This document shows, one piece after another, positions 4,795-57,762 of a DNA stretch of 64,000 bases (the first letter of the stretch is position 1; the number at the start of each line of letters is the position of its first letter). The DNA lies in contig JBHGNT010000016.1 in assembly GCA_043228905.1 (NCBI GenBank), positions 7,812,001 through 7,876,000 on the forward strand. The letters are read 5' to 3'. This stretch comes from Azolla caroliniana. Taxonomy: Eukaryota > Plantae > Polypodiophyta. The position numbers and the translations under genes are program-made. The notes under the pieces were generated by a model. The model saw only the letters and a list, made by a program, of their open reading frames with translations, searched no databases and had not been told where the DNA came from.

Positions 4795-5500
4795 ATTTGG
4801 TTTCGGTTGACGAAGCTCGGTTCGGAGTTGACTACGAACCTTGTTGGAGTGCAGCCGGTTGGCTCACCCGATATCGTTCTAGTCAGATTTGAACCCGAGT
4901 CGGTTCGGCTTCGGATATATGTATTGTTGAACTTGCTCGAATTGACTCCGGTAACTTGAGGGACAGAACCGACTGGTCTTCCCGAATGTTGCCGAGTCGG
5001 GGTGAGCCCGGTTCGCTTCCGAATATTTATGCCGAATACCGATTATTGAAACCGATTGTCTGGACCGATTCTGCTTCGGGTGGCTGCAGCGACGAGAGAG
5101 ACGGATCCAACTGATCTTCCCGAATGTCGATCAGCCGGATGAAGCACGAATTGGGGTTGTTGTCTTGAGACTGATCTGCACCGAGTGGTTACAATGAGCG
5201 GCGAGCAGCGTTTGATGACCTCTTCGGATGCCGTTTGACCGAGTGGAGCACGATCGTGTCAATGTTGCACAAGGGGATTTCACCTCGAGCGGTTACGATC
5301 ACAAGGAATCAGAGTACAACCTGCTGGCTTACTCCAAGCGAAGATGATCTAACGCGGTGAGATGCAAGCCTCGTTTTTCTTCTTCTTCTCTCTTCTCTGT
5401 TTCTTCGAATGACGCGAATACTGTGCAGGCTGTGATGAAGCGAAGAACCGAATGCTGTGCAGGCTGAGACGACGGCCGACAGCGGGTGTTGAGGAACCTA

Positions 5501-12226: not shown

Positions 12227-12985
12227 TTCGAGGAGCTTAACTCCTCGAACCCCCACCCGTTCGAGGAGTCTAACTCCTCGAAACCCCACATGTTCGAGGA
12301 GTCTAACTCCTCGACCAACCTAACCTTTGTTTGAGGAGCCTAACTCCTCGAACCCCCACACGTTCGAGGAGTCTAACTCCTCGACCAACCTAACCTTTGT
12401 TCGAGGAGCGTAACTCCTCGAACCCCCACACGTTCGAGGAGTCTAACTCCTCGACCAACCTAACCTTTGTTCGAGGAGCCTAACTCCTCGAACCCCCACA
12501 CGTTCGAGGAGTCTAACTCCTCGAACAACCTAACCTTTGTTCGACGAGCCTAACTCCTCGAACCCCCACACGTTCGAGGAGTCTAACTCCTCGAACCCCC
12601 ACATGTTCGAGGAGTCTAACTCCTCAAACAACCTAACCTTTGTTTCAGGAGTCTAACTCCTCGACCAACCTAACCTTTGTTCGAGGAGCCTAATTCCTCA
12701 AACCCCCACACGTTCGAGGAGTCTAACTCCTCCAACAACCTAACCTTTGTTCGAGGAGCCTAACTCCTTGAACACCCACACGTTCGAGGAGTCTAACTCC
12801 TCGAACAACCTAACCTTTATTTGAGGAACCTAACTCCTCGAACCCCCACACGTTCGAGGAGTCTAACTCCTCGAACAACCTAACCTTTGTTTGAGGAGCC
12901 TAACTCCTCGAACCCCCACATGTTCGAGGAGTCTAACTCCTCGAACAACCTAACCCTTGTTTGAGGAGCCCAACTCCTCGAACAA
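12227..12985. repeat. Array of ~22 palindromic units TTCGAGGAG-YCTAA-CTCCTCGAA with two alternating spacers (33+37 = 70-bp higher-order repeat)
   Basis: Directly visible; spacers CCCCCACACG and CAACCTAACCTTTG alternate. Confidence 0.95.
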
Positions 12986-19446: not shown

Positions 19447-19924
19447 TAACTTCCCAATTAGAGAAGGCTAATTGAAGTACTAGGAGGTAATCAATTCTAA
19501 CCCCCTACATTCCTGTTACGGGCATGACCATGTAATATCCCGTGGTGAGAATTTACCATAGTATTCTATACACATGGATATTATATGGTCATGCTCGTAA
19601 CAATTCCACATGAGGTTCAACCCCCTACATTCCATAGGTGCATCTAGTAAATTAAGAGATATGTTACTATGGAGTAATAGAGAGGTGAGAAATTTGGGTT
19701 TTGAACCCAAGACATAGTGCTAGTAGTGTAAAACTTACCAATTAAGGTAAGCTAATTGAAGTACCAGGAGGTGATGGGTTCAACCCCTTACATTTCACAG
19801 TGGCATCTGGTAAATTAAGAGATATGTTGCTATGGAGTAATAGAGAGGTGAAAAAAATCGGGTTTTGAACCCAAGACATAATGCTAGCTAGTAGTGTATA
19901 AACTTACCAATTCGGGTAACCTAA
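19447..19924. repeat. Degenerate tRNA/SINE-like tandem (~170-bp unit, about 2 copies)
   Basis: Repeated GTAAATTAAGAGATATGTT...GGGTTTTGAACCCAAGAC...CTTACCAATT; B-box-like motifs on both strands. Confidence 0.5.
19514..19602. mobile_element. 89-bp fold-back mini-element made of two inverted chromovirus LTR U3 ends
   Basis: TGTTACGGGCATGACC...GGTCATGCTCGTAACA; TSD ATTCC on both sides. Confidence 0.9.
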
Positions 19925-20367
19925 TATTAAAGACATGAACTAATGTAAGCATTAGATAAGGATAGCATATAGATAGATAGATAGAAAGGAGAGAGAGAAA
20001 GAAGGGTGCCGATCCACCCGACCACCCCCGAGCGAAGGGATTGACACGGACTCGAGCCTCGATCGGCGTCCCATACCACCGCTGTGGCGTCGAGTTGTAC
20101 CTGGTGCTGGCGTGCTCACTTCAAGAGTTGACCCACCACAAGACAAAGTCTCGACGTAGTCAACAAGATGATCAAATGAGGGTAGCTAGGCCTCTTATTT
20201 ATAGCGATACCCAAGGCCCCTAGGCAAGTTCACACTTGGTCTAATGGGTTGTCTCAATCCCGAGGATTAAAAGTAATCCTCCCCTTCTTTACACTCTCGT
20301 TTAACCCTCACACTTATCCACGTGTATAGAATACTACGGTAAATTCTCACCACAGGATATTATATGG

Positions 20368-23300
20368 TCATGCCTGTAACATACTCCCCCTCTTTAAAAC
20401 ATTGCACTCTTGCAATAAAAAGTTAGGGAAGTTAGTTCTTAGAGTATTTTCACGTTCCCATGTGGCATATTTTATTGATTTATCCATCCATTTTATTTTA
20501 AATTCTCGGATTTCTGTAGTACGTAATTTTTTTGTTTTAACATCGAGAATTCTTTCTGGTACATGTGGTTTAGAAGATACTTCTTCAATAGTAACCAGAG
20601 TTTCAGTTGTAACTATATTGTCGCCAAAACCTAGAAGTTCTTTAAGACGACTCACATGAAAAACTGGATGAATTTCAACACCATCGGGAAGAGCGAGACG
20701 ATAGGTTGATGACCCAATGCGTTTGAGGACTATAAATGGTCCACAAAACCGTGGGGCTAACTTAGCGCACTTACCCTTAGACAATGTCTTAGAATTGTGA
20801 GGTACACGTAAAGATACCTTATGTCCAGGGTTGAATACACGAGGTTGCCTATGATGATCGACATAAAAACGCGCTCTATCTTGAGTTGTTTTTATATTAT
20901 CTCGTGCAATATGCAATATATCTTGCATATCCCGAAGAAAGTTTTGCGTATTTTGCAACTCATCATGATGTATATTAACATCAATTGGGGCTCGTGGCTG
21001 AAAACCATACATCAACATAAAAGGACTATATCCCGTCGACGTATGCTTGGAGCTATTATAAGCAAACTCCAAACATGGGAGATAACGTTCCCATTTTGTT
21101 GGTTTTGCACCAACGTATGCTCGAAGCATGTCCTCAATAATTTGATTTACTCGTTCTGTCTGTCCATTGGATTGAGGATTGTCCGTGGAGCTCATGCTCA
21201 ATGTAGTTTCTAACTTCTCGAAGACTTGCATCCAGAAGTCACTAGTAAACTTTGGATCTCGATCACTCACAATATCCATCGGTAACCCATAAAAATGAAA
21301 TAACTCGTGAACGAATTGGTAAGCCAATTCAGGAGCTATTACCGTGGTTTTAGTAGCAATAAATCTGGCCATTTTAGTTAGTCTATCAACCACAACCCAG
21401 ATGGAATCATGACCTTTTTGGAAGTGAGGAAGGCTAACAATAAAATCCATGGATATACTTTCCCACTTATTATTGGGAATGTCCAAGGGATGTAAAAGTC
21501 CTGCGGCTTTAAGTCTCTTGGCTTTGTTCACCTGACTTTGGTGACATTTAGTCACATAACTATGTATGTCAGGGCGCATCTTAGGCCAATAGAATTGAGT
21601 GGAGATGAGAACGAGTGTACGATGTATTCCAGGGTGCATCATGGCATTCAAAAAGAATCCTCTTTTTGATCTCGGGTAAATCTAGAACACAAACCTTCCC
21701 ATTATGGTAGAGCAGACCATTAGCAATGTGAAAGTATTCCTTCGAGGATGTGGTGGTGTTTGTTCCAGACTCAACTCTTGCCCAGTATTTCGCAAAATAA
21801 CTGTCATTAGGATACTTTCCTCGAAGGTGATCATAAAGATCTGATGATATTTCAATGAAGCTAAGCATGTTAACTTCACGGATTCGACTTAGTGCATCAG
21901 CAACAGTGTTCATGGAACCTTTACAATATCGTATGGAAAAATCAAAGTTCTGGATGAGATCAACCCATCGTGCCTTACGACCTTTCAGGTCTTGTTGGTC
22001 ACAAAAATATTTTAAGGACTCGTGGTCCGTAGTTACCACAAAGCGATTTCCATAAAGATAATGGCGTCATGTTTCGAGTGCATGTATAACTGCAAATAAT
22101 TCCTTTTCTTGAACGGTATATCGACATTGAGCAAAATCAAGTTTCTTACTCTCGAATGCTATTGGTTTACCATCTTGATATAAGACAACACCTATAGCAT
22201 AATCACTTGCATCAGTTTCAACCTCAAAAGGTTTTGAAGGATCAGGTAAAAGAAGTGAAGGAGCCTTGCACACCAGGTCCTTGAGTTCCTTAAAGGTGAG
22301 GTCTAGTGTAGCATTCCAGACAATAGGTTTTGTAGACTTACACGTTTGACCTTTTAGAAGATCAGTAAATGGCGTCGTCAATTGGGAGTAATTACGTAGG
22401 GATTTTCGCAAAAACCCAACAAAACCAAGGAATGATCGAACTTCTCGAATGTTCCGAAGAGTGGGCCAAAGCTTGATTTTCTCGATGCGAGAAGGATCAA
22501 TTTCAACTCCTCGTTCAGTTATGAGATGTCCAAGATAAGTAATTGATTTCTTGAAGAACTCACATTTTTAGATCTTCACATAAAACTATTTGTCATGCAA
22601 TGTTTGTAAAACAAAGCGGACATGTTTAACATGTTCTTGTAATGTACGGCTATAAACTAAAATATCATCCAAGAAAATAACGACAAATTTTCCAAGTTGT
22701 TCTCGGAAAATGTCATTCATTTCTCATTGAAATGTAGCCTGAGCATTGGTCAAACCAAAAGCCATAACCAAAAACTCATAATGGCCATAGCGCGTACGAA
22801 ATGCCGTTATAGGAACATCGTCCTCACTTATACGAATTTGATGGTAGCCAGTACAGAGATCAAGTTTCGTAAAATACCAAGCTCCCTGGAGACGGTCAAT
22901 TAGATCGTCAGCCCGAGGCACTGGATACGAATTCTTGATCGTCACTTTATTCAAGCATCGGTAATTAATACACATACGCCATGTGCCCTCTTTCTTTTAA
23001 ACCAAGAGAACTGGTGCACCCCATGGAGATTTACTATAACGTATATATCCCATTCGTAAATAGTCCTTGATTTGCTTACATACCTCATCCTCTTCGGATC
23101 GACTTAAGCGATAAGGAGGTATACTTATTGGTGCAACACCAGGTACAATATCTATACGATGGTCTATATTACGTTTAGGAGGTAACCCATCTGGTAGTTC
23201 ACTCGGAAAAACATCACGAAAATCATTTAAGATTTTATCAAGTTGTTGTTGTTCAAAATATGTTAATTGAACCGAGACATTATCGATATTGTAAACGTGA

Positions 23301-24428
23301 ATGTCCGGATCAAGTACACAATAAAATAGAGTAGAACAAGACGACTCGGATATTGATGGAGAGGAAACAATTGAGAGGGATGGTTTTTTTACACATTGAA
23401 TAAAATGATTACAATCGTTCAGTACAAATGTTATTGAATGATGAACCCAATCAGTAGATAAAGAAGAGTTTTTATTATAGAACCAGGGATAACCCAATAT
23501 TACATCCATGGTACAAAGATTCATTACATGGAAGTGTACTTCCTCTATATAAGTATCAATAGAAATTCCTAATGAATGAATCGCCCCGTTAATGTATTGT
23601 ATTCTTCCATCAGCCAAGTGCATCGTATAGGTGTGATCACTTACGGTGGGTTGGATTCCCAGCGAATTGCGACTGCTTAGTACCGGGCATTTCGTTGGGT
23701 TTGTTGTGGTCCTTCTTCGAAGTGCATTGATAGCAAATAACTATTTCAACGGCTTCTTCGAAGGATTTTGGATCCTTATCGTGCACTATCTAGTGATAGT
23801 CCGAATTGGGGATGCCATTGACAAAACAAGCTATTAACCAATTGTCCCCTTCTAGACCCGATTTTTGGATTTGGGTTCTAGCATGGTGGACATAGTCTTC
23901 TAGCGAGGAAAAGTTCCGGCTAGAGAGGTTCATTAAAGCTTGTGCTGCCGCAGTTCCAGAGGGAGGTTGCAGAAGCTAGCCCTTGTAAACTGTGACAAAA
24001 TTTGTCCAGGTATCGTGCAATTTCCCCAAAGTACGGCCCTTACCCCCTAGTTCTCGAACGACATATGCAATCTTCGTACTATCTAACGTGGGATAGAGCT
24101 CAAAATGAGACTCCCATCGGCCCAGCCACGTGTAGATTGCTTCTTCGGTTCTTTCCTTTTTTTCACCCGTAAATGGCTTAACGACAAACGATGGTTCACC
24201 CTGTCGCTCATCATGTCTATTAGTCTCACGTTGTAAACTAATGACACGTGCCTCGAGAGCATTTTGAGATTGCCGAAGTTCGGTCATCTGTTGAGCGGTG
24301 AAACTAAGGTATTGGGTTATTTGCGAAAACAATGGACATTTGTCTAGGAGGATTTCCTTGAGTTCCTTCCGCTTGAGCGGATGACATCGGGTCATTATTT
24401 TGAGCCATTGAATGGTTATTTCTGGCAA
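20368..24428 (-). pseudogene. Chromovirus gag-pol with C-terminal chromodomain, frameshifted
   Basis: [56 protein letters not shown]...KW...ATWE. Confidence 0.92.
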
Positions 24429-25670
24429 AGAAATAGGATAAGGTCAGACAAATAGTCATAACATCATGTCGTGATGTAAACATATCATGGGCAAACATTA
24501 ATCGATATCATGATCTCACGTCAATACCCCTCGAGACGTATGAGATGAGGTTCAAGATCAGGTTAATATAGTAACACAAATGTGTTTTAAAAACCATGGG
24601 GGTGACAAGTAAATGTCTTTCCCTGATCTCTATATCGATTTTTTCATGGCAGCTCCCCGAGGCTCAACCATGTATGTCCGCATCATGAGTAGTTTATACA
24701 CGAAAAAAATGTTAGCAATAAACTATGTTTCTGTGCCCACATATGTGGTTTCGGCTCTTTAAGTCCTATTACGAGGACCCCGAAATGCACTTAGACCTCA
24801 AGTCTAAACATGTGTTATAGTCATATATATATCAACGACGTTGTATGGTCTTGGTCATATTTAAACTCGAGACCTCAAGAACAAACGCATTAAACACTTG
24901 AGCCAACCAAGTAGGTTGCTCTTCTTGAATGTTTAATGTTTCAAAAATGCATATAAGAGATATGCGAGGCATTTGCCCATATATGTTTTTTTAAAAGAAA
25001 CATATATGTCAAGAGTCCTTATTTCCCCCTCGTGTACTACAAAATATGTTGGTGCGTTACCTAACCTCAAGTCTCGTAATTACGATGGCATACGCCAAAG
25101 TGCAACCTAATGGTCAAGCCAAATGAGCCCTCTTTTCGTAGTAGGCCCACGTGGCCCATCACATGGTTACGTCATTACGAATGCCTCTCATAAGAATGAT
25201 CTCATGGTGGCATCATATCCATATAACGAGGGAGGGATGTTGGATATGTGTGTGATAGGAGCGACCTCACATGAATTGGGTCAAGCCCTACGTTCTCAAC
25301 ATCATTGTGGCTATAGGCATTTCTTTACGTAATAAAATCGAAGTCAACAACGGGAATGTCAACAATAAAAAATTGTTGAAAAAAGGGATGGTGACAACAT
25401 CATTCTCACAAAAATGTGAGGACGACCACCAAGATCCTTTCACCGAAAAGGAAAACATTCGATATAAAGATCACGTAATATCAAATATACACATATGTTT
25501 ATTTATCACATATATACGATCAAATACGTATACACGTGACCACATATGCGTATATTTAAAAAAATCATAACATCAAATAGCCAACATATGATGAAATCGA
25601 GACACATAATCGAAGCATGTAGCCTCTACGCACACGAAACATCCAAAAATAAGGGTTAATCGTAATACGC

Positions 25671-25860
25671 AATTGAGGTATTGACCTCATATGCATACGA
25701 CACCAAACGCATATCATTTACAACGAAATTGAGGTATTGACCTCATACACATACGTAACATATGTAAGTGAACGTAATACACAATTGAGGTGTTAACCTC
25801 GTACGCATACGACACTAATCACATATTATTTATATGTCAAATGAGGAATTGACCTCATGC
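25671..25860. repeat. Four 56-bp-spaced hairpin units TGAGGT-ATTG-ACCTCA in the chromovirus leader
   Basis: Units at ~25671, 25727, 25783 and 25839 with alternating spacers. Confidence 0.75.
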
Positions 25861-27824
25861 ACATATGTAAACATTTTATATAACCAATTAATTACAACTA
25901 CAACATCATTAAATTAATGAAAACAAGTACATATAGACTATACACATGATTAGATGGGAGAAGAAAAAATAGAAAAAAAATAAGGAAAGAGTTACCGACG
26001 TTCCTTTGTTGATCATTGTCTGGATCAAGGCCGACCACACATCGATCGATCACCATCAATCAACAAAACAAAAGACAACAAAAGAAACATTAGCACATAG
26101 CTCGGATACCAACTGTTAGAGACATGAACTAATGTAAGCATTAGATAAGGAATAGATAGACAGAAAGGAGAGAGAGAAAGAAGGGCGCCGATCCACCCTA
26201 CCACCCCTGAGAGAAGGGATCGACACGGACTCAAGCCTCGATCGGCGTCCCATACCACCGCCATGGCGTTGAGTCGTACCTGGTGCTGGCGCGCTCACTA
26301 CAAGAGTTGACCCACCACAAGACAGAGTCTCAACGTAGTCAACAAGATGATCAAATGAGTGTAGCTAGGCCTCTTATTTATAGCGATACCCAAGGCCCCC
26401 AAGCAAGTTCACACTTGGCCTAATGAGTTGTCTCAATCCCGAGGATTAAAAGTAATCCTCCCCTTCTTTACACTCTCGTTTAACTTATCCACGTGTATAG
26501 AATACTATGGTAAATTCTCACCACTGGATATTATATGGTCATGCCCGTAATAGCTAATAACTTCAATGCCCTGTTATCTTGCAATCAAATTTCTCAACGA
26601 TTCTCAAGATCGAAGAGTTTCAATCATTTAGATTGGTGTCAAACTTGTAGATCCTTGCTGAAGAACCCACATTCGTATAGGCTTTGGAAGTAATCCTTCA
26701 AATGGACACTGGTTGTGAGTTATATCTCGCACTATAGGATTGAGAATAACTCAATCCTTACCCTTTACTCATAAATTAGCCCGCACATACTAATTCATAA
26801 TTGTAATCGTAGTTGTGTGCTAACTCATAATGAACAAAGGGCGAGGGTTGAGTTATCTCAATCCTAACGGTGCAAGATAACTTTCGAGTGTTTCATCACT
26901 TGTCCACTTTTTTATGAAAAAACTACCAAGTGTGAAACATTGAGGGGCATAGTAACTGAGCTTATATAAGAAGGCTACTAGCCACCTTCATGACGGGGGA
27001 TATCTCTTATCTTTATTGTTTTGGAGATAGAGAATATGATAGTGTGGAAAAGTTCTAGTTACTTACATGTGTGCCTCTTGCGTCAAACCCAAGGTAAGAT
27101 CCATGTTCGTACTCAATGGTATGGGACACTGATAGGGGACTTGAATCCGTCTCTCACCTTCATTATGGGTGGTTAGGTGGAGTGGTGCCCTTTCTTCATT
27201 ATTTTCCTTCTTAATTTTGCTTAACATTAATATGGTTATGCTCGTAACAATTAGTTATTCTATTGTAATCTTATCATCAAGTTATCGTGATGATAAGATT
27301 AAGATATCATCATGTTATTCAAGTTTTAAAAAACCATTTGAGCACACGTGGTTGCAATAAATTCACTTCTAGTGTATGTCATTATTGAACATGTTCATTC
27401 TCCCATTGTACCAAATGTTATGCATGATCATGCATTACTATTCATCCCTTATTATCCATGAGTATCAATCTCTAAGCATGTAATTCATTGTTTCTTACTC
27501 CTCAATATGCCCATTGTCTGCACAACAAATACTTCTTTGCTTCTTGACACCAAACAATGTCTATACTATTCTTGGCCATATGTTTGTTAGCTTAACGCTA
27601 AGAAGACTTCAACCTTAACTAGTTAGGGATGATTTACCTTTGACTTAGCTAGAGAAAGCCATAGAGTGAAATACACTACTCGTGAGTTTATTATTATGGA
27701 AGATTTTCCTTTTGATCTCCATTGACTCCTTCATGCAAAGTGGCATCATCCCTCAAAACCCATGAGTTGTTTATTTAATAAAACCCCATAAATCCATTGA
27801 TTCATTCATCCCTTAAAATCCCAT

Positions 27825-28560
27825 CTTTTCCTTCCAATTGTTTTAGTGGGTTTCAAGCCCTTTATCAAAATCCTAAACTTTTGTAAAACTTGTCATTTTC
27901 TCCCTTTATACACACCACATCATGAAATCCATCCAAAGAAAACCAACACATCCTTTAGTATGTGCCAAATGATAGCATGGGTTGGGTGAAACAATTGTCA
28001 TGACCCCCAACTTTTCCTTCTAATTGTTTTATGGGTTTCAAGCACTTTATCGAAATCCTAAACTTTTGTAAAGCTTGTCATTTTCTCCCTTTATACACGC
28101 CACATCATGACATCCATCCTAAGAAAACCAACACATCCTTCAGTATGTGCCAAATGATAGCATGGGTTGGGCGAAACAATTGTCATGACCGCCAACTTTT
28201 CCGTCCAATTGTTTTATGGGTTTCAAGACCTTTATTGAGATCCTAAACTTTTGTAATGCTTGTCATTTTCTCCCTTTATACACACCACATCATGACATCC
28301 ATCCTAAGAAAACCAACACATCCTTTAATATGTGCCAAATGGTATCATGGGTTGGGCGAAACAACTGTCATGACCCCCATCTTTTCCTTCCAATTGTTTT
28401 ATGGGTTTCAAGCCCTTTATCGAAATCCTAAACTTTTGTAAAGCTTGTCATTTTCTCCCTTTATACACACCACATCATGACATCCATCCTAAGAAAACCA
28501 ACACATCATTCAACATTTGCCAAATGATAGCATGGGTTGGGTGAAACAATTATCATGAAC
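27825..28560. repeat. Tandem repeat, ~185-bp unit x4
   Basis: Unit starts at ~27825, 28011, 28196 and 28381 (CTTTTCC.TC.AATTGTTTTA.GGGTTTCAAG...). Confidence 0.93.
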
Positions 28561-45682: not shown

Positions 45683-46152
45683 TGTTAATAATTAGGTAAT
45701 TAACTAGGGTTAATCAGGGTCTAATTATGTGAGTATTGATAAAGCAACGGAAGATTATGTGATTGTGTGTGTATGTGTGTGAGAGGAAGAGAGAGGGGAA
45801 GATACACTTCTGAACAATAATATAAATGGGGGATGATTAACAAGAGTGTAGCTAAAGACCTTTCTTTATATTAATAAGCATCAAAATACAACGATATCCT
45901 CTATGAGATATATATACACCTCATGTGCAAGGGTGCACATGTGTGAGGAGAATATAGGTACAAATGTGTAAGTCCTATATTAAATTAACTTGGTAGTGGA
46001 GGATCTAGAATGTATCCCCACTTACGTACAAGTACAAGATCTTATTTAAGGGTTAAAAGGTCAACACACTAACTAGATTCTATCTAGGTAACTACTAGTA
46101 AGTTACGTGGTTAACTAAATGGCTAAACTAAGTTGAGCTTGATATCTCAACA
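45683..46152 (-). mobile_element. Solo LTR of the host copia's own family, inverted, TSD GGTAT
   Basis: Reverse complement matches 53415-53854 (TGTTGAGATATCAAGCTCAACT...ATTATTAACA); GGTAT on both sides. Confidence 0.92.
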
Positions 46153-47169
46153 GGTATGCTCAAACCCATGGCATCGACTACGAAGAAACCTTTGCCCCAG
46201 TGGCAAAGATGACCATGATTTGGACAATCCTAGCACTCACGGCAGCAAAAGGGTGGCACCTCCACCAAATGGACGTGAAAAATGCGTTCCTCCAAGGCGA
46301 GCTAGAGGACGAGGTGTACATGGTCCAACCACCCGACTACACATTGAAATCACATCCGAATGTCGTATGCCGACTCAAGAAACCCCCTTTACGGCCTCAA
46401 GAAGGCGCCAAAGGCTTCTCATTCAAAGATCACGCAATCCTTGCACCGAATCAGTTTTCAAATGTCTAAATCCGACAATTCCTTGTTTATCCGAAGCAAC
46501 TCCAATGGTCTAATCTTCATCATCATATATGTCGATGACTTAGTGATCGGTGGTGAACACCTAGCCGAAATCAACAAGGTCAAGATGCTCCTATCCGGGA
46601 AGTTCGAGATGAAAGACATGAACGAACTTCATTACTTCCTGGGAATCGAGGTCATTCGAACTAGAGATGGTATCTGTCATGATATGGCAAGACTCGAACC
46701 CATGACCTTATGCTACATGGGTCGAGCTCTTACCATTAGACTATGAATTGTATGTTGTAAGATATTATTTTCATTTATGCTTTATCATAGAAAATTGATG
46801 TATATTCCAGATCTCTCTGGAACATTCTAGAAGCTTCAGGATTATTCCTAAAAACACTATAAAAGAAGGCACAAGGCATTGTTTTGAACCAAATTGGTTC
46901 AACACCAGTCTTAAGCCTCTTAATCGATTTGTACTTATCTTTCATATAATATAAGAGCTGTTGTCATCATCCTATCTCTCTCTCTCTCCTCTTCTCACTT
47001 CCTCTCTCTCGGGAATCTTACGCAGTCCCGTCCTCTTAGTACTAATAGTACTACTCTTCTTAGTACTAATTCCATCTCTGTTTTAGTACTATTCCTGACA
47101 GTTTGAACCAATTTTTTCCTCTAGCCTACTTGTCACTCTCCCTCATCCTCCTACCCTTTCCCCTATACT

Positions 47170-48324
47170 ATGGCTACTGTTAGCGCCCAAGAATACCAAT
47201 CCGTTTTCTCCGAGCTACAGTGCCTAAAAGAAAAGTTTGTTGCCTTGGAACAAGAAAACCAACGGCTGATAGGGGATCTGCAACAAATCGCTCTAGAAAA
47301 ACAACAAACGCAACAACAACATGGGGAGTTAGCGTTACGGGTACAACAACTCGAAGCAGCGTTGCAACAAGGATCCAGTCCCCAAGGATTTCATAAAGAG
47401 CCCAAGATTGGACTTCCTGTGAAATTTGATGGAACGCGTTCGCAATTTCGGGGATTCCTTAATCAGGTACGCTTAGTCATCCAGATGCATCCTTCCCGAT
47501 ATCCCACTGATGCATCTCGAGTCGGCCTAATAGGCACGCTACTTAGCGGCTCAGCCTTGGCATGGTTCGCTCCGCTTCTAGAAAAACAATCGCCCTTGCT
47601 TAATAACTTTGAAGATTTTATTGGTGAGTTTAAAGCCTGCTTTGGAGACACCGACAGCATCAGGACGGCGATCAACAAGATCTGGCGATTGCGTCAAGGC
47701 GATCGTCCAGCCTCTGCCTACGCGGCGGATTTCCGCCTACTTGCTTCAGATATACCCTGGGATGATCAAGCACTAATGGAGCAGTTTCGCTATGGCTTGC
47801 GAAACGATGTCAAAGATCTACTTCTAACTTTCCCCGAAGAACCAAAGTCTCTTACGGAGGCAATCAGTCGAGCAGTTCGATGTGACAACCGCCTTTTTGA
47901 ACGGCGTTCAGAACGTCAATTACAGATACCACGATCTAGGCCAGAGCCCACTTACGCCGCAGTCGCGGCTAAACCGTTCGCACGAGACATACCTCAAGCA
48001 AATACTTCGACACCGATGGAGATCGATACCATGCGTCGACGCGGCCCGTTATCGGAAGAGGAAAAGCAACGACGACGTGCCAATCGATTATGCCTTTATT
48101 GCGGTGGACCAGGACATATCGCCATCAATTGTCCCCATAGGCCAAGGAGACAGGTAAATCAAATCGTCGCCTGTACTAAACCTGAGTCAATTCTTCCCTT
48201 CGGAGTGTCTGATAGTAGTAATAGTACTAATAGAGTGTCAGATAGTATTCATAGTACTAATAGCCCAAGTATCTCAAATAAATTTGAAATCCTTAGTCAA
48301 TTAGATGAAGAGTTAAACGATTGA
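47170..48324 (+). CDS. Gag (coiled coil, capsid, CCHC zinc knuckle), PEG10/sushi-like
   Basis: 384-aa ORF with PVKFDGTRSQFRGFL, LRQG...AYAADF, PMEID, CLYCGGPGHIAINC. Confidence 0.95.
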   Translation: MATVSAQEYQSVFSELQCLKEKFVALEQENQRLIGDLQQIALEKQQTQQQHGELALRVQQLEAALQQGSSPQGFHKEPKIGLPVKFDGTRSQFRGFLNQVRLVIQMHPSRYPTDASRVGLIGTLLSGSALAWFAPLLEKQSPLLNNFEDFIGEFKACFGDTDSIRTAINKIWRLRQGDRPASAYAADFRLLASDIPWDDQALMEQFRYGLRNDVKDLLLTFPEEPKSLTEAISRAVRCDNRLFERRSERQLQIPRSRPEPTYAAVAAKPFARDIPQANTSTPMEIDTMRRRGPLSEEEKQRRRANRLCLYCGGPGHIAINCPHRPRRQVNQIVACTKPESILPFGVSDSSNSTNRVSDSIHSTNSPSISNKFEILSQLDEELND

Positions 48325-48367
48325 GTCCAGCCAAAATAGGAGCCATTTGGTTGGACAGCAGCCCTAG
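48312..48367 (+). promoter_or_regulatory. Putative -1 ribosomal frameshift signal
   Basis: G_TTA_AAC in the gag frame within the 16-nt gag/pol overlap; 6-nt spacer; 11-bp stem 48325-48335/48346-48356. Confidence 0.7.
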
Positions 48368-51300
48368 ATCTGTACAGCCCATTAGTGGTTCCATTCCTTC
48401 CAAGCAAGTTAGCAATGTGTTCCTAGCCCAAGTCATTGTTAGTACTAAAAGTACTCCCCCAGTACCCGTCCTAGCACTTTTAGATTCCGGAGCTAATTCC
48501 TGTTTCATGGATCGAAATTTTGCCCAAGCTTCTCAGATATCCTTAAGAAAACTTCCTTGTCCCGCATCTGTAGTGGTCATTGATGGTCGTCCCATTGCTT
48601 CCGGGAATATTGTAGAAGAATCAGAACCCATTCAAGTTGTCCTAGGTAGTTTTGTGTGTATAATATCATTTAATATAATTAGTAGTCCAGAGCATCCCAT
48701 TGTCCTAGGATTACCTTGGCTTGAATTACATAATCCAGCCATAGATTGGAGAACAAGAGAAGTCCGATATCGACCACCCCAAGAATCAACTCGCCGAGTT
48801 TCGACCATTTCACTCCATCAACTACGTGAAGAAGGACCCAAGGAGGCAATGTTCCTATTTTCCATATCAGTACATCCTTCCAGCACTATTAAGAAGGACT
48901 CCTCAGTACAACTTCCGGCAAAATATCATCCTTATGCCGATGTATTTGACAAGGTAAAAGCCGGTACCCTTCCTCATCACCGTCCCTATGACTGTCCCAT
49001 CGATTTACAACCAGGAACCGAGCCACCATGGGGACCAATTTACAACCTGTCACCCACCGAGTTAGAAGTCCTTCGAGCCTACATAGAGGAGAACTTGGCA
49101 AGCGGGTTCATCCGTCATTCGAAATCTCCGGCCGGTGCACCCATCTTCTTTGTCAAGAAGAAAGATGGCTCACTTCGTCTTGTCGTTGATTACCGCGGAT
49201 TAAATAAAGTCACCATCCGGAATAGGTATGCACTTCCTCTTATATCAAGTCTTTTAGAGCGAGTTAATGGTGCCAAGTTTTTTACTAAAATCGACCTACG
49301 CGGAGCGTATAATCTCGTGCGGATCCGACCGGGAGATGAGTGGAAGACCGCTTTTCGCACGCGGTATGGGCATTTCGAGTATACTGTTATGCCGTTTGGC
49401 CTAACCAATGCACCCGCAGTCTTCCAACACATGGCAAATGATATATTCAGAGACCTCTTGGATATCTGTTTGATCATTTATCTGGATGATCTGTTGATTT
49501 ATTCGAAGACCCAGGAAGAGCACGATTCTCATGTACTATTAGTACTAAAGCGACTCCGCGAGAATGGTCTTTATGCCAAACTAGAAAAATGTAGCTTTGA
49601 CTGCAAGCAAGTGGAATTTCTAGGCTACGTCATCTCCTCAAAGGGCATCGCCATGGATCCAGCTAAGATCCAAACTGTACTAGAGTGGCAAATTCCACGG
49701 TCGGTACGAGATGTACAATGTTTTCTAGGTTTTGCTAACTTCTACCGTAAGTTTATACAGGGTTACTCGAAGATTATTTTACCTCTCACACAACTTACGA
49801 AGAAGGGCCAAGCATTTCTTTGGTCCATTGAAGCAGATATGGCTTTTCGGCATCTTAAGAAAGCCTTTACATCAGCACCGATTCTAGCTCATGTGGATAC
49901 AAGCAAACCATTCATCATGGAGGCCGACGCATCAGATTTCGCCCTCGGTAGCATCCTTTCTCAACAAGGTGATAAAGAAGAGTTGCATCCGGTGGCTTTC
50001 CATTCGCGCAAATTCGATGTCGCAGAAATCAACTACGAAATACATGACAAGGAGTTATTAGCCATCGTGGATTCATTTGTACAATGGCGGCATTTCTTAG
50101 AGGGCTCTCCACATCAGGTGATTGTCTTCAGCGATCATAAAAATCTTGCTTATTTTCAGAACGCTCGCGTACTAAATCGACGGCAAGCTCGGTGGGCGCA
50201 ATTCCTCACGCGTTTCGACTTCAAAATCACATATCGACCGGGGAAGCAGCAAGGAAAAGCAGATGCACTATCACGACGTTCATATCTTGCACCTCGTCCT
50301 GGTGACGCAACATTTGATAATCAAAAGCAAGTAATCTTGGGACCAACACGATTGCACACGACGCGGATTTTTCACATCCCGATGGATTCACGGATTACCG
50401 ATGACATACGTGCAACCTTGAAGACGGATAGTTTTGCTCAAGACATCCTGGCGCACATTGATACTTCTCGGGCATCCTGTTCTCAGTCTCAACAACCAGG
50501 TATTGACTACCGACAATTCGAATATCATGATGGTTTGTTATTCTTTAAAAAGCGCGTATATGTCCCCGATTGCTCCTGTCGCCTTCAAATTGTCCAACAT
50601 TGTCACGACACCCATACGGCGGGACATTTCGGTAGTACTAAGACGTTGGAACTAGTGCAGCGATCTTTTTGGTGGCCCCACATGCGCCGTTTTGTCGACG
50701 ACTACGTTCGGACCTGTGATGCTTGCTGCCGAGCAAAGATGCCACGACACCATCCATATGGCTTGTTGGAACCTTTACCAATTCCAAGTAAGCCATGGCA
50801 GTCTATTTGTCTTGATTTTATCACAGATCTGCCGGTCTCGAAAGGGTTCGATGCTATCCTAACCGTCGTCGATCGATATACGAAGATGGCACATTTTGTG
50901 CCATGTACTAAAGCCATCACTAGCGAGGAAACCGCCGCTCTTGTTATGCGTGAGGTTTTTTGGCATCATGGCCTCCCAGACAGTATTATCAGTGACCGAG
51001 GCCCGCAATTTGTCTCCAAATTTTGGCAGCATCTCTTCAAGATGCTCAAGGTCTCCTGCAACCTCTCCTCCGGCTACCATCCTCAGACCGACGGACAGGC
51101 GGAACGAACAAACCAAACGCTGGAGCAATATCTCCGGTGTTTCCTGAGTTATCAACAGGACGATTGGGCCGAGATTCTCCACTTTGCGGAGTTTGCGTAT
51201 AATAATGCTATTCACTCCTCGACTCGGGTCTCTCCATTTTTCGCTTATACCGGTTTCCATCCTCGCTGGACGGTGATCGACACTCCGGAGCTACTTACCA

Positions 51301-51893
51301 ACCCTCGTGCCGAGGATCATTTGGAGAGGCTACGCAAGATCCAGATGGATCTCTCTACTCACCTTCGTCATGCTCAACACACACAGAAGACTTATGCGGA
51401 TCGTCATCGGATTCTCTCCTCTTTTGCCATCGGAGATCGAGTATGGCTCTTACGTCGTCACATCAAGACTACTCGACCGTGCGACAAGTTGGATTATCGA
51501 CGACTCGGTCCTTTCCGTATTACGGGGAAGATTAATGATGTCACCTTCCGCCTTGATCTCCCTCCGCAGCTTCAGATACATCCGGTTTTCCATTGTTCTC
51601 TTCTTGAACCTTATAAAGCAAACACCATTCCCGATCGTGTGACACCACCGCCGCCCCCACTGGAGTTGGACGCCGGCCCGGAGTATGAAGTTGCTGCCAT
51701 CCTCGATTCCAAACTTGTTCGCAACAAACTCTATTACTTGGTCGATTGGCTCGGTTATAGTCCGAGCGAACGTACTTGGGAACCCGTCGAGAATGTTGCC
51801 AATGCACAAGATCTTCTTGCTGATTTCCACCGAAAGTATCCGGACAAACCCGGTCCGCAATTAGCGCTGACTCGTTCCACTCGTCGTCTTTAA
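48321..51893 (+). CDS. Pol (protease, RT, RNase H, integrase, chromodomain); no ATG, -1 frame to gag
   Basis: 1190-aa ORF with LLDSGA, KIDLRGAYNLVRI, YLDDLL, EADASDFALG, H..GH...C..C, GQAERTNQ, GPF, YEVAAILD...YLVDWLGY...TWEP. Confidence 0.97.
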   Translation: MSPAKIGAIWLDSSPRSVQPISGSIPSKQVSNVFLAQVIVSTKSTPPVPVLALLDSGANSCFMDRNFAQASQISLRKLPCPASVVVIDGRPIASGNIVEESEPIQVVLGSFVCIISFNIISSPEHPIVLGLPWLELHNPAIDWRTREVRYRPPQESTRRVSTISLHQLREEGPKEAMFLFSISVHPSSTIKKDSSVQLPAKYHPYADVFDKVKAGTLPHHRPYDCPIDLQPGTEPPWGPIYNLSPTELEVLRAYIEENLASGFIRHSKSPAGAPIFFVKKKDGSLRLVVDYRGLNKVTIRNRYALPLISSLLERVNGAKFFTKIDLRGAYNLVRIRPGDEWKTAFRTRYGHFEYTVMPFGLTNAPAVFQHMANDIFRDLLDICLIIYLDDLLIYSKTQEEHDSHVLLVLKRLRENGLYAKLEKCSFDCKQVEFLGYVISSKGIAMDPAKIQTVLEWQIPRSVRDVQCFLGFANFYRKFIQGYSKIILPLTQLTKKGQAFLWSIEADMAFRHLKKAFTSAPILAHVDTSKPFIMEADASDFALGSILSQQGDKEELHPVAFHSRKFDVAEINYEIHDKELLAIVDSFVQWRHFLEGSPHQVIVFSDHKNLAYFQNARVLNRRQARWAQFLTRFDFKITYRPGKQQGKADALSRRSYLAPRPGDATFDNQKQVILGPTRLHTTRIFHIPMDSRITDDIRATLKTDSFAQDILAHIDTSRASCSQSQQPGIDYRQFEYHDGLLFFKKRVYVPDCSCRLQIVQHCHDTHTAGHFGSTKTLELVQRSFWWPHMRRFVDDYVRTCDACCRAKMPRHHPYGLLEPLPIPSKPWQSICLDFITDLPVSKGFDAILTVVDRYTKMAHFVPCTKAITSEETAALVMREVFWHHGLPDSIISDRGPQFVSKFWQHLFKMLKVSCNLSSGYHPQTDGQAERTNQTLEQYLRCFLSYQQDDWAEILHFAEFAYNNAIHSSTRVSPFFAYTGFHPRWTVIDTPELLTNPRAEDHLERLRKIQMDLSTHLRHAQHTQKTYADRHRILSSFAIGDRVWLLRRHIKTTRPCDKLDYRRLGPFRITGKINDVTFRLDLPPQLQIHPVFHCSLLEPYKANTIPDRVTPPPPPLELDAGPEYEVAAILDSKLVRNKLYYLVDWLGYSPSERTWEPVENVANAQDLLADFHRKYPDKPGPQLALTRSTRRL

Positions 51894-54299
51894 GGGGGAG
51901 ATAGTGTCATGATATGGCAAGACTCGAACCCATGACCTTATGCTACATGGGTCGAGCTCTTACCATTAGACTATGAATTGTATGTTGTAAGATATTATTT
52001 TCATTTATACTTTATCATAGAAAATTGATGTATATTCCAGATCTCTCTGGAACATTCTAGAAGCTTCAGGATTATTCCTAAAAACACTATAAAAGAAGGC
52101 ACAAGGCATTGTTTTGAACCAAATTGGTTCAACACCAGTCTTAAGCCTCTTAATCGATTTGTACTTATCTTTCATATAATATAAGAGCTGCTGTCATCAT
52201 CCTATCTCTCTCTCTCTCCTCTTCTCACTTCCTCTCTCTCGGGAATCTTACGCAGTCCCGTCCTCTTAGTACTAATAGTACTACTCTTCTTAGTACTAAT
52301 TCCATCTCTGTTTTAGTACTATTCCTGACAGTATCATGCTCTCCCAATGCCACTACATCCTAAACCTTTTGTTCAAGTTCGGCATGACTGACCACAAGCC
52401 AATTTCAATTCCCCTCGATCGCAACCTAAAAGTACACGCGAACTCCGGCACACCATGTGAGCCGACTTAGTATCGGCAAATCGTAGAGAGTCTCATCTAT
52501 CTAACTATCACTCGACCCGACCTGAGCTATCCAGTCGACCTCCTTAATCAGTTTATGCAAACACCGTGTGACACACATTTGTATTGTTCTAAACGAGTCT
52601 TATGATACATTAGTGAAACCATGGATTGAGGAATCTTCTATAAGACAGGCGCGACAATTCGGCTAGAAGGATACACAGATGCCAATTTGGCCGGCAATGT
52701 ATCCGATTGACGGTTGACATCTAGCTTCGTCTTCTCACTTGGCAGCGAAGCCATCTCATGGAGTAGCAAGAAGCAACCGACAGTTGTGTTGTCCAGCACC
52801 AAAGCAGAATACAGGAGCACGCCCATAGCCACATGCGAAGCCATTTGGTTGAAGCGGCTACTAAAGGACCTCAATGAATCGGCCGACAAACCAATACGTA
52901 TCTACTACGATAATGAAAGTAGCATACAATTAGCTCGAAACCCGGTCTTCCATGCCCGAACAAAGCACATCGAGGTGCACTATCACTATGTTCGGGAGCG
53001 CATCATCACGGGAGACATTGATCTCCATCACGTTGGCACTGATCAACAGACGGCCGATATCTTCACCAAGGCCTTAGGAGTAGACAAGCTCCACCAGTTT
53101 TCACTAGCACTTGACCTTCGATCACTTAACCCTCCAAGTCTTCGTCGATGGCTTGAGGGGAAGGAACTTGAACCAAAAACTAACGGGATTCATCGTCTAT
53201 AATCGAATGTCGAACGCAAACGCCTCACACTTGAGCTTGAGGGGGCGTGTTGAGATATCAAGCTCAACTAGGTTTAGTTATTTTGGCATATGTGTAACTT
53301 AGTAGTTACATATTTTGGCTTGAGGGGAAGGAACTTGAACCAAAAACTGACGGGAGTCAACGTCTATAATCGAATGCCAAACGCAAATGCCTCACACTTG
53401 AGCTTGAGGGGGCATGTTGAGATATCAAGCTCAACTAGGTTTAGTTATTTTGGCATATGTGTAACTTAGTAGTTACATACATAGAATCTAGTTAGAGTGT
53501 TGACTTCATGGCCATAAATAGGATTTTCTACTTGTACTTAAGAATGGATACATTCTAGATCCTCCACTACCAAGTACATTTAATATAGGACTTACATCCT
53601 TGTACCTACATTCTCCTCACACATGTATATATACCTCATGATGGGTATTTTTGTATTTCGATGTCTTTTAATATAAGTGTTAATCATCCCCCATCTTGAC
53701 TTAGTGATTATAAGTGTTCTTTCTCCCTTCCTCTCATACTCTCACATACACACACACACATCACATAAACTTCCGCTACTTAATCACATATGTAATTAAC
53801 TATTCACATAATTAGATATTAATTAACCCTTAGTTAATTACCTAATTATTAACATGGACGATATAATTATCATGGGTAACAACGAAGGAGAAATTGCCCA
53901 ACTGAAGGTACAACTAGGTAAAGAGTTTGAGTTGAAGGATCTAGGATTACTACAATACTTTCTTGGAATTGAGGTAGCTCGTGGGGTAGAAGGAGTTGTT
54001 CTATCTCAGCAAAAATATGTATTAGATCTTCTCATAGAAACTAGAATGTTGGTTTGAAGGGATGTGGCTTCTCCAATTGACCCAAAGATTAAGTTAACTA
54101 AACTTGCAAGAGAGAAAGTTGATCGTGAAAGGTATCAAAGATTGGTAGGTCGGTTGATTGATTTGACTCATACTCGTCTAGATATTTCATTTACAATAAG
54201 TGTGGTAAGTCGCTACATGCATGATCCGAGGAAAGATCATTTGGATGTAGTGTACTAGATCATGAGATATCTCAAAGGGGCCCTAGGGAAGGGATTGAT

Positions 54300-54504
54300 T
54301 GTTACGGGCATGACCATATAATATCCTGTGGTGAGAATTTACAGTAGTATTCTATACACGTGGATAAGTGTGAGGGTTAAACGAGAGTGTAAACATGACC
54401 ATATAATATCCTATGGTGAGAATTTACCATAGTATTCTATACACGTGGATAAGTGTGAGGGTTAAATTCTCACCATAGGATATTATATGGTCATGCCTGT
54501 AACA
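54300..54504. mobile_element. 205-bp fold-back mini-element from chromovirus LTR U3 ends
   Basis: TGTTACGGGCATGACC...GGTCATGCCTGTAACA; TSD TTGAT. Confidence 0.92.
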
Positions 54505-54606
54505 TTGATCTTTAGAAAACATGGTCATTTTAACATTGAGGGCTATTGTGTTTCTAATTGGACTAGTTATGCTAATGATTGGAATTCCACATCAGGATAT
54601 TGCATG

Positions 54607-54785
54607 TGTTACGGGCATGACCATATAATATCCCGTGGTGAGAATTTACCGTAGTATTCTATACACGTGGATAAGAGTAATCCTCCCCTTCTTTACACTC
54701 TCGTTTAACCCTCACACTTATCCACGTGTATAGAATACTATGGTAAATTCTCACCACGGGATATTATATGGTCATGCCCGTAACA
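54607..54785. mobile_element. 179-bp fold-back mini-element from chromovirus LTR U3 ends
   Basis: TGTTACGGGCATGACC...GGTCATGCCCGTAACA; TSD GCATG. Confidence 0.92.
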
Positions 54786-57762
54786 GCATGTTTGTTGGGG
54801 CAATCTGGTCTCTTGGAAGAGTAAGAAATAGTCAGTGGTAGCAAGGTCAACAGTAGAAGCAGAGTATAGAGCTATTGTTGTAGGAGTTGCAGAGATGTTA
54901 TCGTGAGAACTCTCCTAGTAGAATTAAAGATTAATCAAGAAAATCAGATGAGGTTGTGGTGTGACAATAAGTTAGCAATCAGCATTGTCAACAATCCAGT
55001 ACAACATGATAGGACCAAGCACATCGAAATCAACATATTCTTTATCAAGGAGAAGCTTGATAGTGGGATACTAAACTCGAGTCATGTTTCTACTAAAGAT
55101 CAAGTAGCAAATTGTCTTACAAAGGGCCTTGGTCCAGTCAGTCTTTCTAGATTGTGTGACAAGATGGGCTTAGTTGATATCTTTCACCCATCTTGAGGGG
55201 GAGTGTTGAGAATGATTAAAGTTATAGCCAAACGGCTAGCCCAACGACCACATCTTGGCCTTTATAAAGAGGAACCTTCTCTTCCTGTAAAAATAAGCCA
55301 TCTCTGTATTTTCTCTCTTGTTGTGACATATATGTATATTCTTGAATAAATGTGTTTTCTCATTTTTCAATTAGAACTAATTAGAGACTAGAATCAATTT
55401 TATTATTAGGACTTAGTTGATTTACATGGAATTTCAATCAATGTGGATAATTGATTGCTTTATGTCCTAGACCATCGCAATACAAATTTTTCTTAAGATT
55501 ATTTCTTCTCATCATCAAACAAAGGTCCTCAACACGTGTCAGTTTGATCTTCATCATTGTGGGATCATTCATATGAATAGGGTGGGGAGGCTTGTGCTTG
55601 AGAAGGCCTTGCAGGTTGGGTTGATGTCACTAAACCATGGGTAAGCTCCAATTTAGCATGTGTTATTTGTTGACACTTGAGGACACCATTCAAAAACCCA
55701 ATTACCACATTATATTGCTTAAGTAATGCCCTCTATAAGGGATTTGGGAGCTTTGAAAAACATAAAGAAATACTTCACATCATTTTGTAGCTCATTCCCG
55801 AATTGGCCCATTAATGTTACTTCATCACAGGGATATAGTTTGCTAGAAACCGACAAAGTACCATATACATTGAGATTGGGCAATCTTCTTCTCACAAACT
55901 TTGAATGTTGTTGATTACAAGTCTTACACAATTTGCATCTCCAAAGATCCCTTGAAATTCATTAAATAAACTTTCAAAATATCAAGCAAACATGACTTTT
56001 GTTACAACAATAGTGAAAATCATGCTAGTGTCACTCTTGTCAACGAAATCCAACTAATGCAACAGGAACTACATTGGTTGGATATCGATTGCATTCATAT
56101 GAATCGTTAAATGCACTTGGTTTAGTAATTCTCAAGAGTGGGATCGAGTACCATCCAACTTTACTTACAAACTAATTTTCAGTAAGATTAAGTACATACA
56201 AATATTTTCAATTCTTTGAAGGAAGTTTGTTGTTGCAAAGATTGCAATGTTGCTTCAAGTTGATAAATTATGTTTGATAACTTGTCCTATTTTGCTTTTT
56301 CGTCATTGACTTCTTGTAAATCCCCATGTATCTTTGGTTCTCCTCTAGTACCATTGATTTATTTGTGAGGCACTCTAACTTAAGAGAACAAGCATAAACT
56401 CTTGCCTACTAACAACGTCCATGGTTATGAGAGAGCTCAATAAGATTCCCAAAAAGAAAGGAAGGGAGAAAGAAGGGAATTTTGGTTCAAACATACATGG
56501 GTGAAACCCAAAAACTATGAGGTTGAAAAAGAGAGAAGAAATGGAAAGTAAGGAATTCAAGGAATTTGTATTATGTACCAGGTCAAGATTTACAAGGATG
56601 CATTGAACTCTAGCATTGAAATGGAATGGTTCAATGAATATGATGCTTCTTTTGTGTATAGTATCATTTTGTGTGCATGGTTGTCACGTGTTCATGATAA
56701 ATGGTTGCCGCTTAGAAAAATGAAGTAAATTATTGAACACGAAATCCAAAAGATGCAAGAAGTGGTCATTGATAATTGATTAAATAGCAAACAAATTATT
56801 ATAATGTCCTATTTGTATGTCTAGTTTGGTAGTCACTTTGTGGATAATACCTCGACAAGAGTTTACAAGACATTCCGAAATTTCTTGACCAAGTATTTCT
56901 GAAATTTTGAGAGGAATTGTAGCCCCTTATCATTTATGACGCCATAGGTTTGAGACGCCCAAATACATATGATATTTTGTAATGTCATGACAATGTGGTA
57001 TCACTCATTCATAGTTCTTCCTTATTTCGGTTCACATGGCTACAATTGCCTAAGACAACCAGATCATTTGCTAGTGTAAATAACTTGATATACGACCTCG
57101 ATCTAGAATTTTTCTTATTACATGGTTTTCTTGTTGTCAATGAGTAATGGTACAACTTGTTCATTGGGGCTAGGTTGAGCCAACTTTTACATAGATCTTT
57201 AGTAGAATTGGTTTGAATGTCCTTATATAAACATTAATAATGACCCCTTTCATGCATTTAATAAGAAAAGCATCAAATCATGAAGACATAGTGCATCGGA
57301 ATAACCGAGCATTATTCTACTAATTTTGTAAAGGATTATCGGTGTTCCAAATTTCTCCAATTCATTGACAACAATTCTCATTACAATCTTACATTGCTTG
57401 GCAGAGGACAAAATTTTTAATGGAAGTCTTCCAACTTAGTGTCTTGGATTTTTAATCACGCATAATTGAGCATGCCACCGCTAAGTCTTTACCAATAATC
57501 ATTGTTTGTGCTTTTAACTAGTCACAAATATATCTTTACTAATAAAAAATTATTCTTGTGCTTTCATTACCACTAGTTTTGGTATGTTGGAGACATTATT
57601 GTGAGACATAAAGAAAAGCTAATAAAAAATTGTCATGTCAAGGTGCTATCAATAGTTTTGGTATGTTAAAGACATAAATACCATTGAATTGGAGGCATCT
57701 GCCTTGAAAGGATAATCAGTCTTCGTGAATGATTGGACAAATGGGATTTTCCTACATAATTC

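Follow-up and report, generated by a model that had tools for sequence, protein, structure and literature searches.

Three short inserts in a 64,000-nt stretch of Azolla caroliniana DNA (the window) consist of the start of the U3 region of one chromovirus LTR, read forward and then as its reverse complement, which leaves the same U3 terminus at both ends. We consider it probable (about 70%) that these inserts are dead-end by-products of chromovirus reverse transcription, in which DNA with two U3 ends was inserted by the element's own integrase. The observed features behind this reading are composition from U3 alone, exact termini, target-site duplications (TSDs), inner junctions that vary in position and are enriched on U3 inverted repeats, and recurrence of the same anatomy in other sequence data.

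To describe the inserts, we number U3 positions along the 3′ LTR of the parent element, with U3 nt 1 at window position 20381; no strand is assigned to the inserts themselves. Insert A (19514–19602, 89 bp) joins U3 1–67 (19514–19580) to reversed U3 27–1 (19576–19602) with a 5-nt overlap, GGATA, at its inner junction, and is flanked by a perfect 5-bp TSD, ATTCC (19509–19513 and 19603–19607). Insert B (54300–54504, 205 bp) comprises U3 1–94 (54300–54393), U3 10–82 (54394–54466) and reversed U3 42–1 (54463–54504), the last two overlapping by the 4 nt TAAA, between perfect 5-bp copies of TTGAT (54295–54299 and 54505–54509). Its first two segments (54300–54466) form a direct reiteration of the U3 start. 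Insert C (54607–54785, 179 bp) joins U3 1–69 (54607–54675) to reversed U3 110–1 (54676–54785), with no exact overlap at the inner junction, between perfect 5-bp copies of GCATG (54602–54606 and 54786–54790). A perfect 5-mer on both sides is expected by chance with p of about 0.001 per insert. When the window was scanned for sequences shorter than 700 bp with TG...CA ends, terminal inverted repeats and a perfect 5-bp TSD, exactly A, B and C were returned.

Sequence comparison bears out the original prediction of three U3-only inserts of 89, 205 and 179 bp at these positions, including the architectures of A and C; its description of the last segment of B as 38–1 denotes the same junction, being 42–1 minus the 4-nt TAAA overlap. 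Every base of the three inserts maps to U3 1–110, and the primer-binding site (PBS), polypurine tract (PPT), R, U5 and coding sequence are absent, in agreement with the earlier view that they are neither solo LTRs nor TRIMs. Each segment is 92.5–100% identical to the parent 3′ LTR. The two arms of C differ at 1 of 69 positions, and in B a C28>T change is common to all three segments and G29>A to the last two. The three duplications are indeed different and perfect, as had been claimed; the parent's own TSD, the length of which they had been said to share, matches at just four of five positions (CCTAA/GCTAA).

The parent (19925–26552, minus strand) is a chromovirus of the Ty3/gypsy group, now decayed, with a gypsy integrase bearing a C-terminal chromodomain, LTRs, a PBS and a PPT. 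On the minus strand, its 5′ LTR (26114–26552, 439 bp) and 3′ LTR (19925–20381, 457 bp) differ at 26 of 439 aligned positions; a PBS-like motif (26100–26111), which we take to be of the tRNA-Met type, lies 2 nt inside the 5′ LTR boundary, and the PPT (20382–20391) stands directly before U3 nt 1. The integrase reading frame (20368–21681, minus strand) shows zinc-binding, core, SH3_Tf2 and chromodomain matches, of which the rve match falls below the Pfam curated cut-off and the other three named domains above it. Because the parent is minus-stranded, with the purine tract directly before the terminus common to A, B and C and the PBS-like motif after the other LTR, this terminus is the U3 attachment end. 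The same PPT-then-U3 context is found in five metagenome loci (L009, L012, L028, L040 and L046). The possibility that the LTR had captured the end of a DNA transposon with these terminal inverted repeats (TIRs) is disfavored by the position of the terminus directly behind the PPT, in the parent and in 5 of 52 loci, and by arms of no fixed length.

The target sites of the inserts are genuine, as B and C interrupt copia motifs and copia contigs skip C. B and C lie in a decayed copia RT/RNase H region (53855–55200, plus strand), and their flanks are consecutive parts of the RT/RNase H coding sequence. Paralogous copia contigs skip insert C in four joint rows, with skips of 189–201 nt, among the 15 of 38 rows listed from the public runs described below. 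The 163-bp repeat unit adjoining insert A contains ATTCC once. This degenerate repeat (19448–19925) was the target of both insert A and the parent element, which lie 322 bp apart within it; the target sites of B and C are 97 bp apart.

We searched metagenome contigs with a 27-nt U3 motif and recovered 52 stretches (loci); the motif had no match in collections of viral contigs or genome contigs. Five loci follow a PPT, and the other 47 represent 44 distinct host-flanked sites, 25 of which reach a contig edge too early for classing. Among the 19 informative sites, 7 are fold-backs, a proportion that is no true frequency, since fold-backs are likely over-represented in short-read contigs. The remaining informative sites comprise eight LTRs that stay colinear for at least 130 nt, one internally deleted solo LTR, one direct U3 reiteration and two that break into other sequence. 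The deleted solo LTR (L037, a minus-oriented copy of 169 bp) joins U3 1–46 to LTR position ~331 onward and has a TSD matching at 4/5; L020 is also a solo LTR of the parent family. The direct reiteration (L007, 601–750) consists of U3 1–127 followed by 1–24.

The seven metagenome fold-backs differ in completeness. One carries a perfect TSD (L013), one a TSD matching at 4/5 (L052) and two none (L006 and L049), and in three the TSD is uncheckable. L006 is the weakest, with a second arm of 9 nt, and L031 and L034 are interrupted by contig ends. The long fold-back L025 (601–907) runs from U3 1–54 through three slipped copies of reversed U3 ~79–103 and reversed U3 to nt 1, then into the PPT and internal sequence; its contig is of low coverage and possibly a misjoin. 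Flanks are mismatched even at full LTRs in these contigs (L022 and L039), and the absent TSDs may reflect assembly joins. The LTR terminus is exact in all three window inserts and in all four of the metagenome fold-backs that end, on the far side too, at an LTR terminus. These seven elements with two LTR termini (A, B, C, L006, L013, L049 and L052) have exact U3 on both sides (7/7), with a 5-bp TSD that is perfect in 4/7 and matches at 4/5 in one.

We then aligned all contigs of four public runs (three studies, with three organism labels, A–C) to insert C, such that a fold-back shows as a skip; each run contains less than half of the query words. The 15 of 38 joint rows listed comprise 10 fold-back joints, 4 empty host sites and 1 deletion inside U3, and one further fold-back is evident from the tabulated inserted letters. 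These rows support the fold-back class and give no exact counts, as the two sides are mostly no longer than 30 nt and were matched at 85% likeness, a range flagged as unreliable, and library fold-back chimeras are possible for any row. No close match across the inner junction of insert C was found among the contigs listed from these runs. One row falls within a base of the insert A junction and carries the insert A change at nt 61, and is possibly insert A itself. Among the rows listed, most fold-back joints occur at about single-contig depth; 97|54 (the two U3 positions joined) reaches 6.6 and 5.1 times this depth in the two runs of organism A, from two studies, 33|33 reaches 4.6 times in organism B, and 67|27, the junction of insert A, reaches 3.1 times in organism C, values that are depths and no copy numbers. 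With 7 of 19 informative metagenome sites and at least 10 fold-back joint rows, the earlier suggestion of a recurrent process is upheld.

We also looked for equivalent structures made from the other LTR end. With contigs aligned to the whole LTR, no joint fell inside U5 among the 15 of 125 rows listed, and no inverted U5 pair was present in the window or in the 52 loci, which were selected on U3. The same rows include one opposite-strand joint (LTR 251|44) and, in three runs, a joint between 20378 and 20322 (U3 nt 4 and nt 60), which is a further direct reiteration of the U3 start in this family. An inverted LTR pair in the window (45683–46152 and 53415–53854) was considered as a U5–U5 element and rejected: 45683–46152 is a reversed solo LTR of copia type, with its own TSD (GGTAT), inside copia RT and 72% alike to the LTR at 53415–53854.

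What determines the position of the inner junctions? U3 1–120 of the parent 3′ LTR carries the inverted repeats at which they fall. We tested exact inverted microhomology anchored at the junction, using as reference L022, one LTR copy with two differences from the window LTR over 135 nt. Among 14 distinct junctions, five lie on 4–5-nt exact inverted microhomology, as compared with 2.4% of random pairs (binomial p 1.4e-5). Enrichment persists when L006 is left out (4/13 junctions with at least 4 nt, p 2e-4) and among TSD-bearing elements alone (2/5, p 0.006). The other nine junctions show 0–1 nt of exact microhomology to L022. The most recurrent junction, 97|54 (product length 147), lies on a 9/10 inverted match, and the insert B junction, 82|42, falls in the register of a CACGTG quasi-palindrome. 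The junction of L013 and L049 is one base off this CACGTG register, in a variant with an extra base. The short-arm end of insert C could pair imperfectly, with a bulge, to U3 nt 111–118, a partner beyond its own length, and a second, longer strand would therefore be needed.

Folding of the nascent plus strand provides a complementary prediction. We folded plus strands of 20–124 nt (105 lengths) as DNA and obtained a paired 3′ end at 10 of these lengths, corresponding to five product lengths of 34, 74, 88, 89 and 220 nt. The 13 observed lengths include three of these, 34, 88 and 89 nt (p 0.0016; 0.028 without L006), and a 67-nt plus strand is predicted to form a hairpin whose closing pair is the junction of insert A. 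No product of 74 nt occurs among the joint rows listed, and the 220-nt product lies outside the detectable range of the insert-C alignment. Fold-back arms span 9–111 nt and rarely pass nt 111. Rows such as 19|111 and 100|33 rule out pure snap-back with arm lengths differing by only 10–43 nt.

The claim that each insert arose independently holds in part. Junctions vary, with 14 distinct positions; they are not unique, as 97|54, 67|27, 54|39 and 70|50 recur. Since the inserts lack a PBS, PPT, R and U5 and a second round of retrotransposition is therefore not expected of them, these recurrent junctions are best read as hot spots.

Sequence variants suggest how many templates were involved. In B, L049 and L052, rare variants are common to both arms, as expected of a single template lineage. 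In L025 and L013, the arms resemble different LTR variants, and in L025 one arm starts at U3 nt 1 and the other runs through the PPT. The makeup of these arms indicates that two plus-sense molecules were needed. L013, which has a TSD, is a safer case than L025, with the caveat that its long arm is diverged.

We propose a pathway of four steps that would apply the biochemistry of yeast elements to this plant element. Plus-strand DNA primed from the PPT, starting at U3 nt 1, would stall or be displaced no more than ~110 nt into U3. Its 3′ end would then pair through 4–10 nt of inverted repeat with a plus-sense strand, which may be the same strand (snap-back, with registers for 34, 88 and 89 nt) or another molecule from that particle, be it plus-strand DNA or RNA; such a second molecule is required for L025 and likely for C and L013. 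Reverse transcriptase would copy back to U3 nt 1, with a further PPT-primed strand as partner, and the hairpin or flap would presumably be converted into a linear duplex with two U3 attachment ends. Finally, integrase would insert this duplex with its normal 5-bp stagger. Precedents for the individual activities come from yeast: PPT re-priming, plus-strand displacement and a build-up of dead-end plus DNA are reported for Ty3 (PMC5371799); Ty1 integrase inserts non-Ty DNA ending in TG...CA with 5-bp duplications, as well as composite elements made by reverse transcriptase, according to the available text (PMC2939329); and the in vitro work excerpted in PMC8487063 has Ty1 integrase using 30-bp ends and preferring U3 to U5 in concerted integration.

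The exact U3 termini, the TSDs, the junctions on inverted repeats and the match to hairpin lengths favor this account, and instability at this very step is also suggested by the direct U3 reiterations in B, L007 and L025. All tests run, including those of exact termini and of junctions on U3 inverted repeats, agree with the original prediction of a by-product that has two U3 ends and was inserted by integrase. Counting against misfired plus-strand synthesis are the nine of 14 junctions with 0–1 nt of microhomology, the bulged pairing in C, the lack of a TSD at L006 and L049 and the missing 74-nt product among the rows listed. Nor does it account for the 97-bp spacing of B and C or the 322-bp spacing of A and the parent. 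Recurrent junctions at about 3–7 times single-contig depth would also be produced by amplification.

Several alternatives can be weighed against these data. Integrase may instead insert a pair of separate U3 ends, or fold-back cDNA of far greater length, and host repair would then shrink the insert. Such repair could join the two free ends at microhomologies, collapse a long palindrome, or recombine the 5′ U3 with a fold-back 3′ end, leaving a "solo" fold-back. Long forms do exist (L025, which continues into the PPT and internal sequence, and the LTR 251|44 joint), filler and slipped copies at the junctions of B, L025 and a 54+7+31 row resemble end-joining scars, the TSD-bearing elements are all asymmetric, and the excerpted in vitro work describes integrase joining two separate donor ends (PMC8487063). 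We nevertheless consider such shrinkage unlikely, as it would not predict junction lengths equal to those of 3′-paired hairpins of the nascent plus strand or arms that almost never extend beyond nt 111; it would still require U3–U3 or fold-back cDNA first, and alters only the last step. An artefact of assembly or library preparation, to which the lack of a close match across the insert C junction among the contigs listed might point, has a close to negligible chance given the direct TSDs, arms that differ at 1–2 positions, paralogous sites without an insert, and L013, an element from an independent assembly that shares this anatomy and has a TSD.

Two further alternatives were weighed. Some fold-backs might propagate themselves as a non-autonomous TIR family moved by a retrotransposon integrase or a Ginger/TDD-like transposase, which would agree with the depths of 97|54 (about 6.6 and 5.1 times) and 67|27 (about 3 times), a rough proxy, with the junction common to L013 and L049 at different sites, and with TG...CA ends and inverted repeats resembling those given for Ginger in the available text (PMC2836005). 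That at least 14 different junctions exist, each rare, makes this very unlikely; moreover, the recurrent ones coincide with strong inverted repeats of U3, 97|54 is shared by L025, which is no miniature, the long-arm variants of L013 and L049 differ, and the termini are those of the PPT-adjacent LTR. Among the TSD lengths given in the sources at hand, Ginger has 4 bp and GingerRoot 6 bp, 5 bp occurring in TDD alone (PMC2836005, PMC6839031). Still more improbable is the conversion of a resident solo LTR by two replication-fork template switches, the second via the 5-nt TGTTA/TAACA terminal repeat. Fork switching would keep the old TSD without a new insertion and use inverted microhomology, and solo LTRs of the family exist (L020 and L037), but the second switch must land exactly on a terminus 300+ nt away in 7/7 complete cases. 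It cannot yield arms of different variants under one TSD (L013), and it predicts equal U5–U5 products, none of which occur in the window or the 52 U3-selected loci. A more far-reaching proposal takes U3–U3 fold-backs to be the first stage at which an LTR retrotransposon gives rise to TIR elements, with the 147-bp 97|54 form already re-mobilized by integrase ("retro-MITEs"), a living Gypsy-to-Ginger transition and a steady source of hairpin RNA against the parent promoter; we regard it as a long shot.

If they arise through misfired plus-strand synthesis, the inserts would be a fossil record of the early part of this process, which has been studied in retroviruses and in the Ty elements of yeast, with junctions that are partly predictable from the U3 sequence and can be counted in any assembled genome. 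They would also provide a simple route by which an LTR element acquires terminal inverted repeats, the structural change on which the published Gypsy-to-Ginger scenario depends. Such inserts would be annotated as MITEs, or overlooked where a pipeline searches for direct LTR pairs. If transcribed, they are predicted to form long hairpin RNAs against the parent LTR, matching its promoter end.

The window contains other retrotransposon features. A 167-bp tandem duplication (53149–53479) covers, in a copia element, the PPT and ~65 nt from the start of the 3′ LTR and is possibly another slip of reverse transcriptase near the plus-strand start. A young chromovirus of a different family (46675–52330) is nested in copia, with LTRs about 99% identical, the TSD GTATC and gag and pol frames that are open over 399 and 1194 aa, respectively. 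On the minus strand, 859–4863 holds an open frame of 1334 aa for a copia polyprotein that includes gag, protease, integrase and RT domains. Tandem arrays occupy 12226–12983 (70-bp unit, about 11 copies) and 27820–28558 (185-bp unit, 4 copies).

Among known classes of element, the inserts share with their parent chromovirus the sequence source, TG...CA ends and 5-bp TSDs, and differ in having U3 twice, inverted, without R, U5, PBS, PPT or coding sequence. A solo LTR is excluded, as there is no LTR sequence past nt 110 and the second end is an inverted U3. Autointegration joins an LTR terminus to internal element sequence at the inner junction; here, the inner junctions connect internal U3 positions and involve no terminus. 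Like MITEs, the inserts are short and non-coding, with terminal inverted repeats, a TSD and a predicted stable hairpin. Unlike a uniform MITE family, they have LTR-U3 arms of variable length (9–111 nt), no fixed family structure, 14 distinct junctions and low copy per junction (at most about 7 times single-contig depth). TRIM/SMART elements have two direct LTRs and, as described in PMC13570524, an internal PBS and PPT. The inserts lack these features, and their repeats are partial copies in inverted orientation. Among published plant structures, the closest we found is the maize Zma-SMART inverted tandem TRIM, described in the available portion of PMC4717578 as two inverted units under one 5-bp TSD, about 560 bp long and of a PCR-validated class. 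In that array, each of the two TRIM units has LTRs and an internal region, whereas the inserts are partial U3 alone, of 34–205 bp.

The TG...CA inverted termini of the inserts also recall Ginger1, Ginger2/TDD and GingerRoot, which have integrase-type ends and, within this group, a 5-bp TSD in TDD (PMC2836005, PMC6839031, as excerpted). The 5-bp TSD of the inserts fits only TDD among these and fits LTR integrases equally. Ginger-type elements, as described in the same excerpts, encode a transposase between fixed TIRs and have 4- or 6-bp TSDs, whereas the inserts are non-coding (PMC2836005, PMC6839031). The only linked integrase sits in an element with RNase H and LTRs, and an integrase-like transposase without RT is absent. 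Derivation of Ginger1 from Gypsy by "reverse evolution" is a published hypothesis (PMC2836005).

A full-text literature search, judged mostly by titles and abstracts and thin on older retrovirus work, returned no description of miniature U3–U3 insertions. The accessible parts of a sugar-beet survey report other reverse transcription errors and rearranged derivatives and not the U3–U3 form (PMC13570524). In defective HIV-1 proviruses, integrated errors of reverse transcription include premature plus-strand transfer and rare inversions; the forms covered in the available text are deletions and internal inversions, not two-U3-ended miniatures (PMC12657518, PMC9278108). Repeated PPT priming in Ty3 frees plus strands, the integration of which is not described in the consulted sections (PMC5371799). 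Ty1 composites resemble the inserts in that a priming error or strand switch in the particle yields an integrase substrate, with a 5-bp duplication and TG...CA ends; they differ in being experimental and containing foreign DNA, and natural U3–U3 miniatures do not feature in the available text (PMC2939329). Exact attachment ends on both sides with a TSD of family length, the features of integrase-inserted aberrant cDNA, are found in all three window inserts, with a perfect TSD also in L013, a 4/5 match in L052 and none in L006 and L049. The best reading is that the miniature U3–U3 form, itself without a description we could find, belongs with integrase-inserted aberrant cDNA, a class already known.
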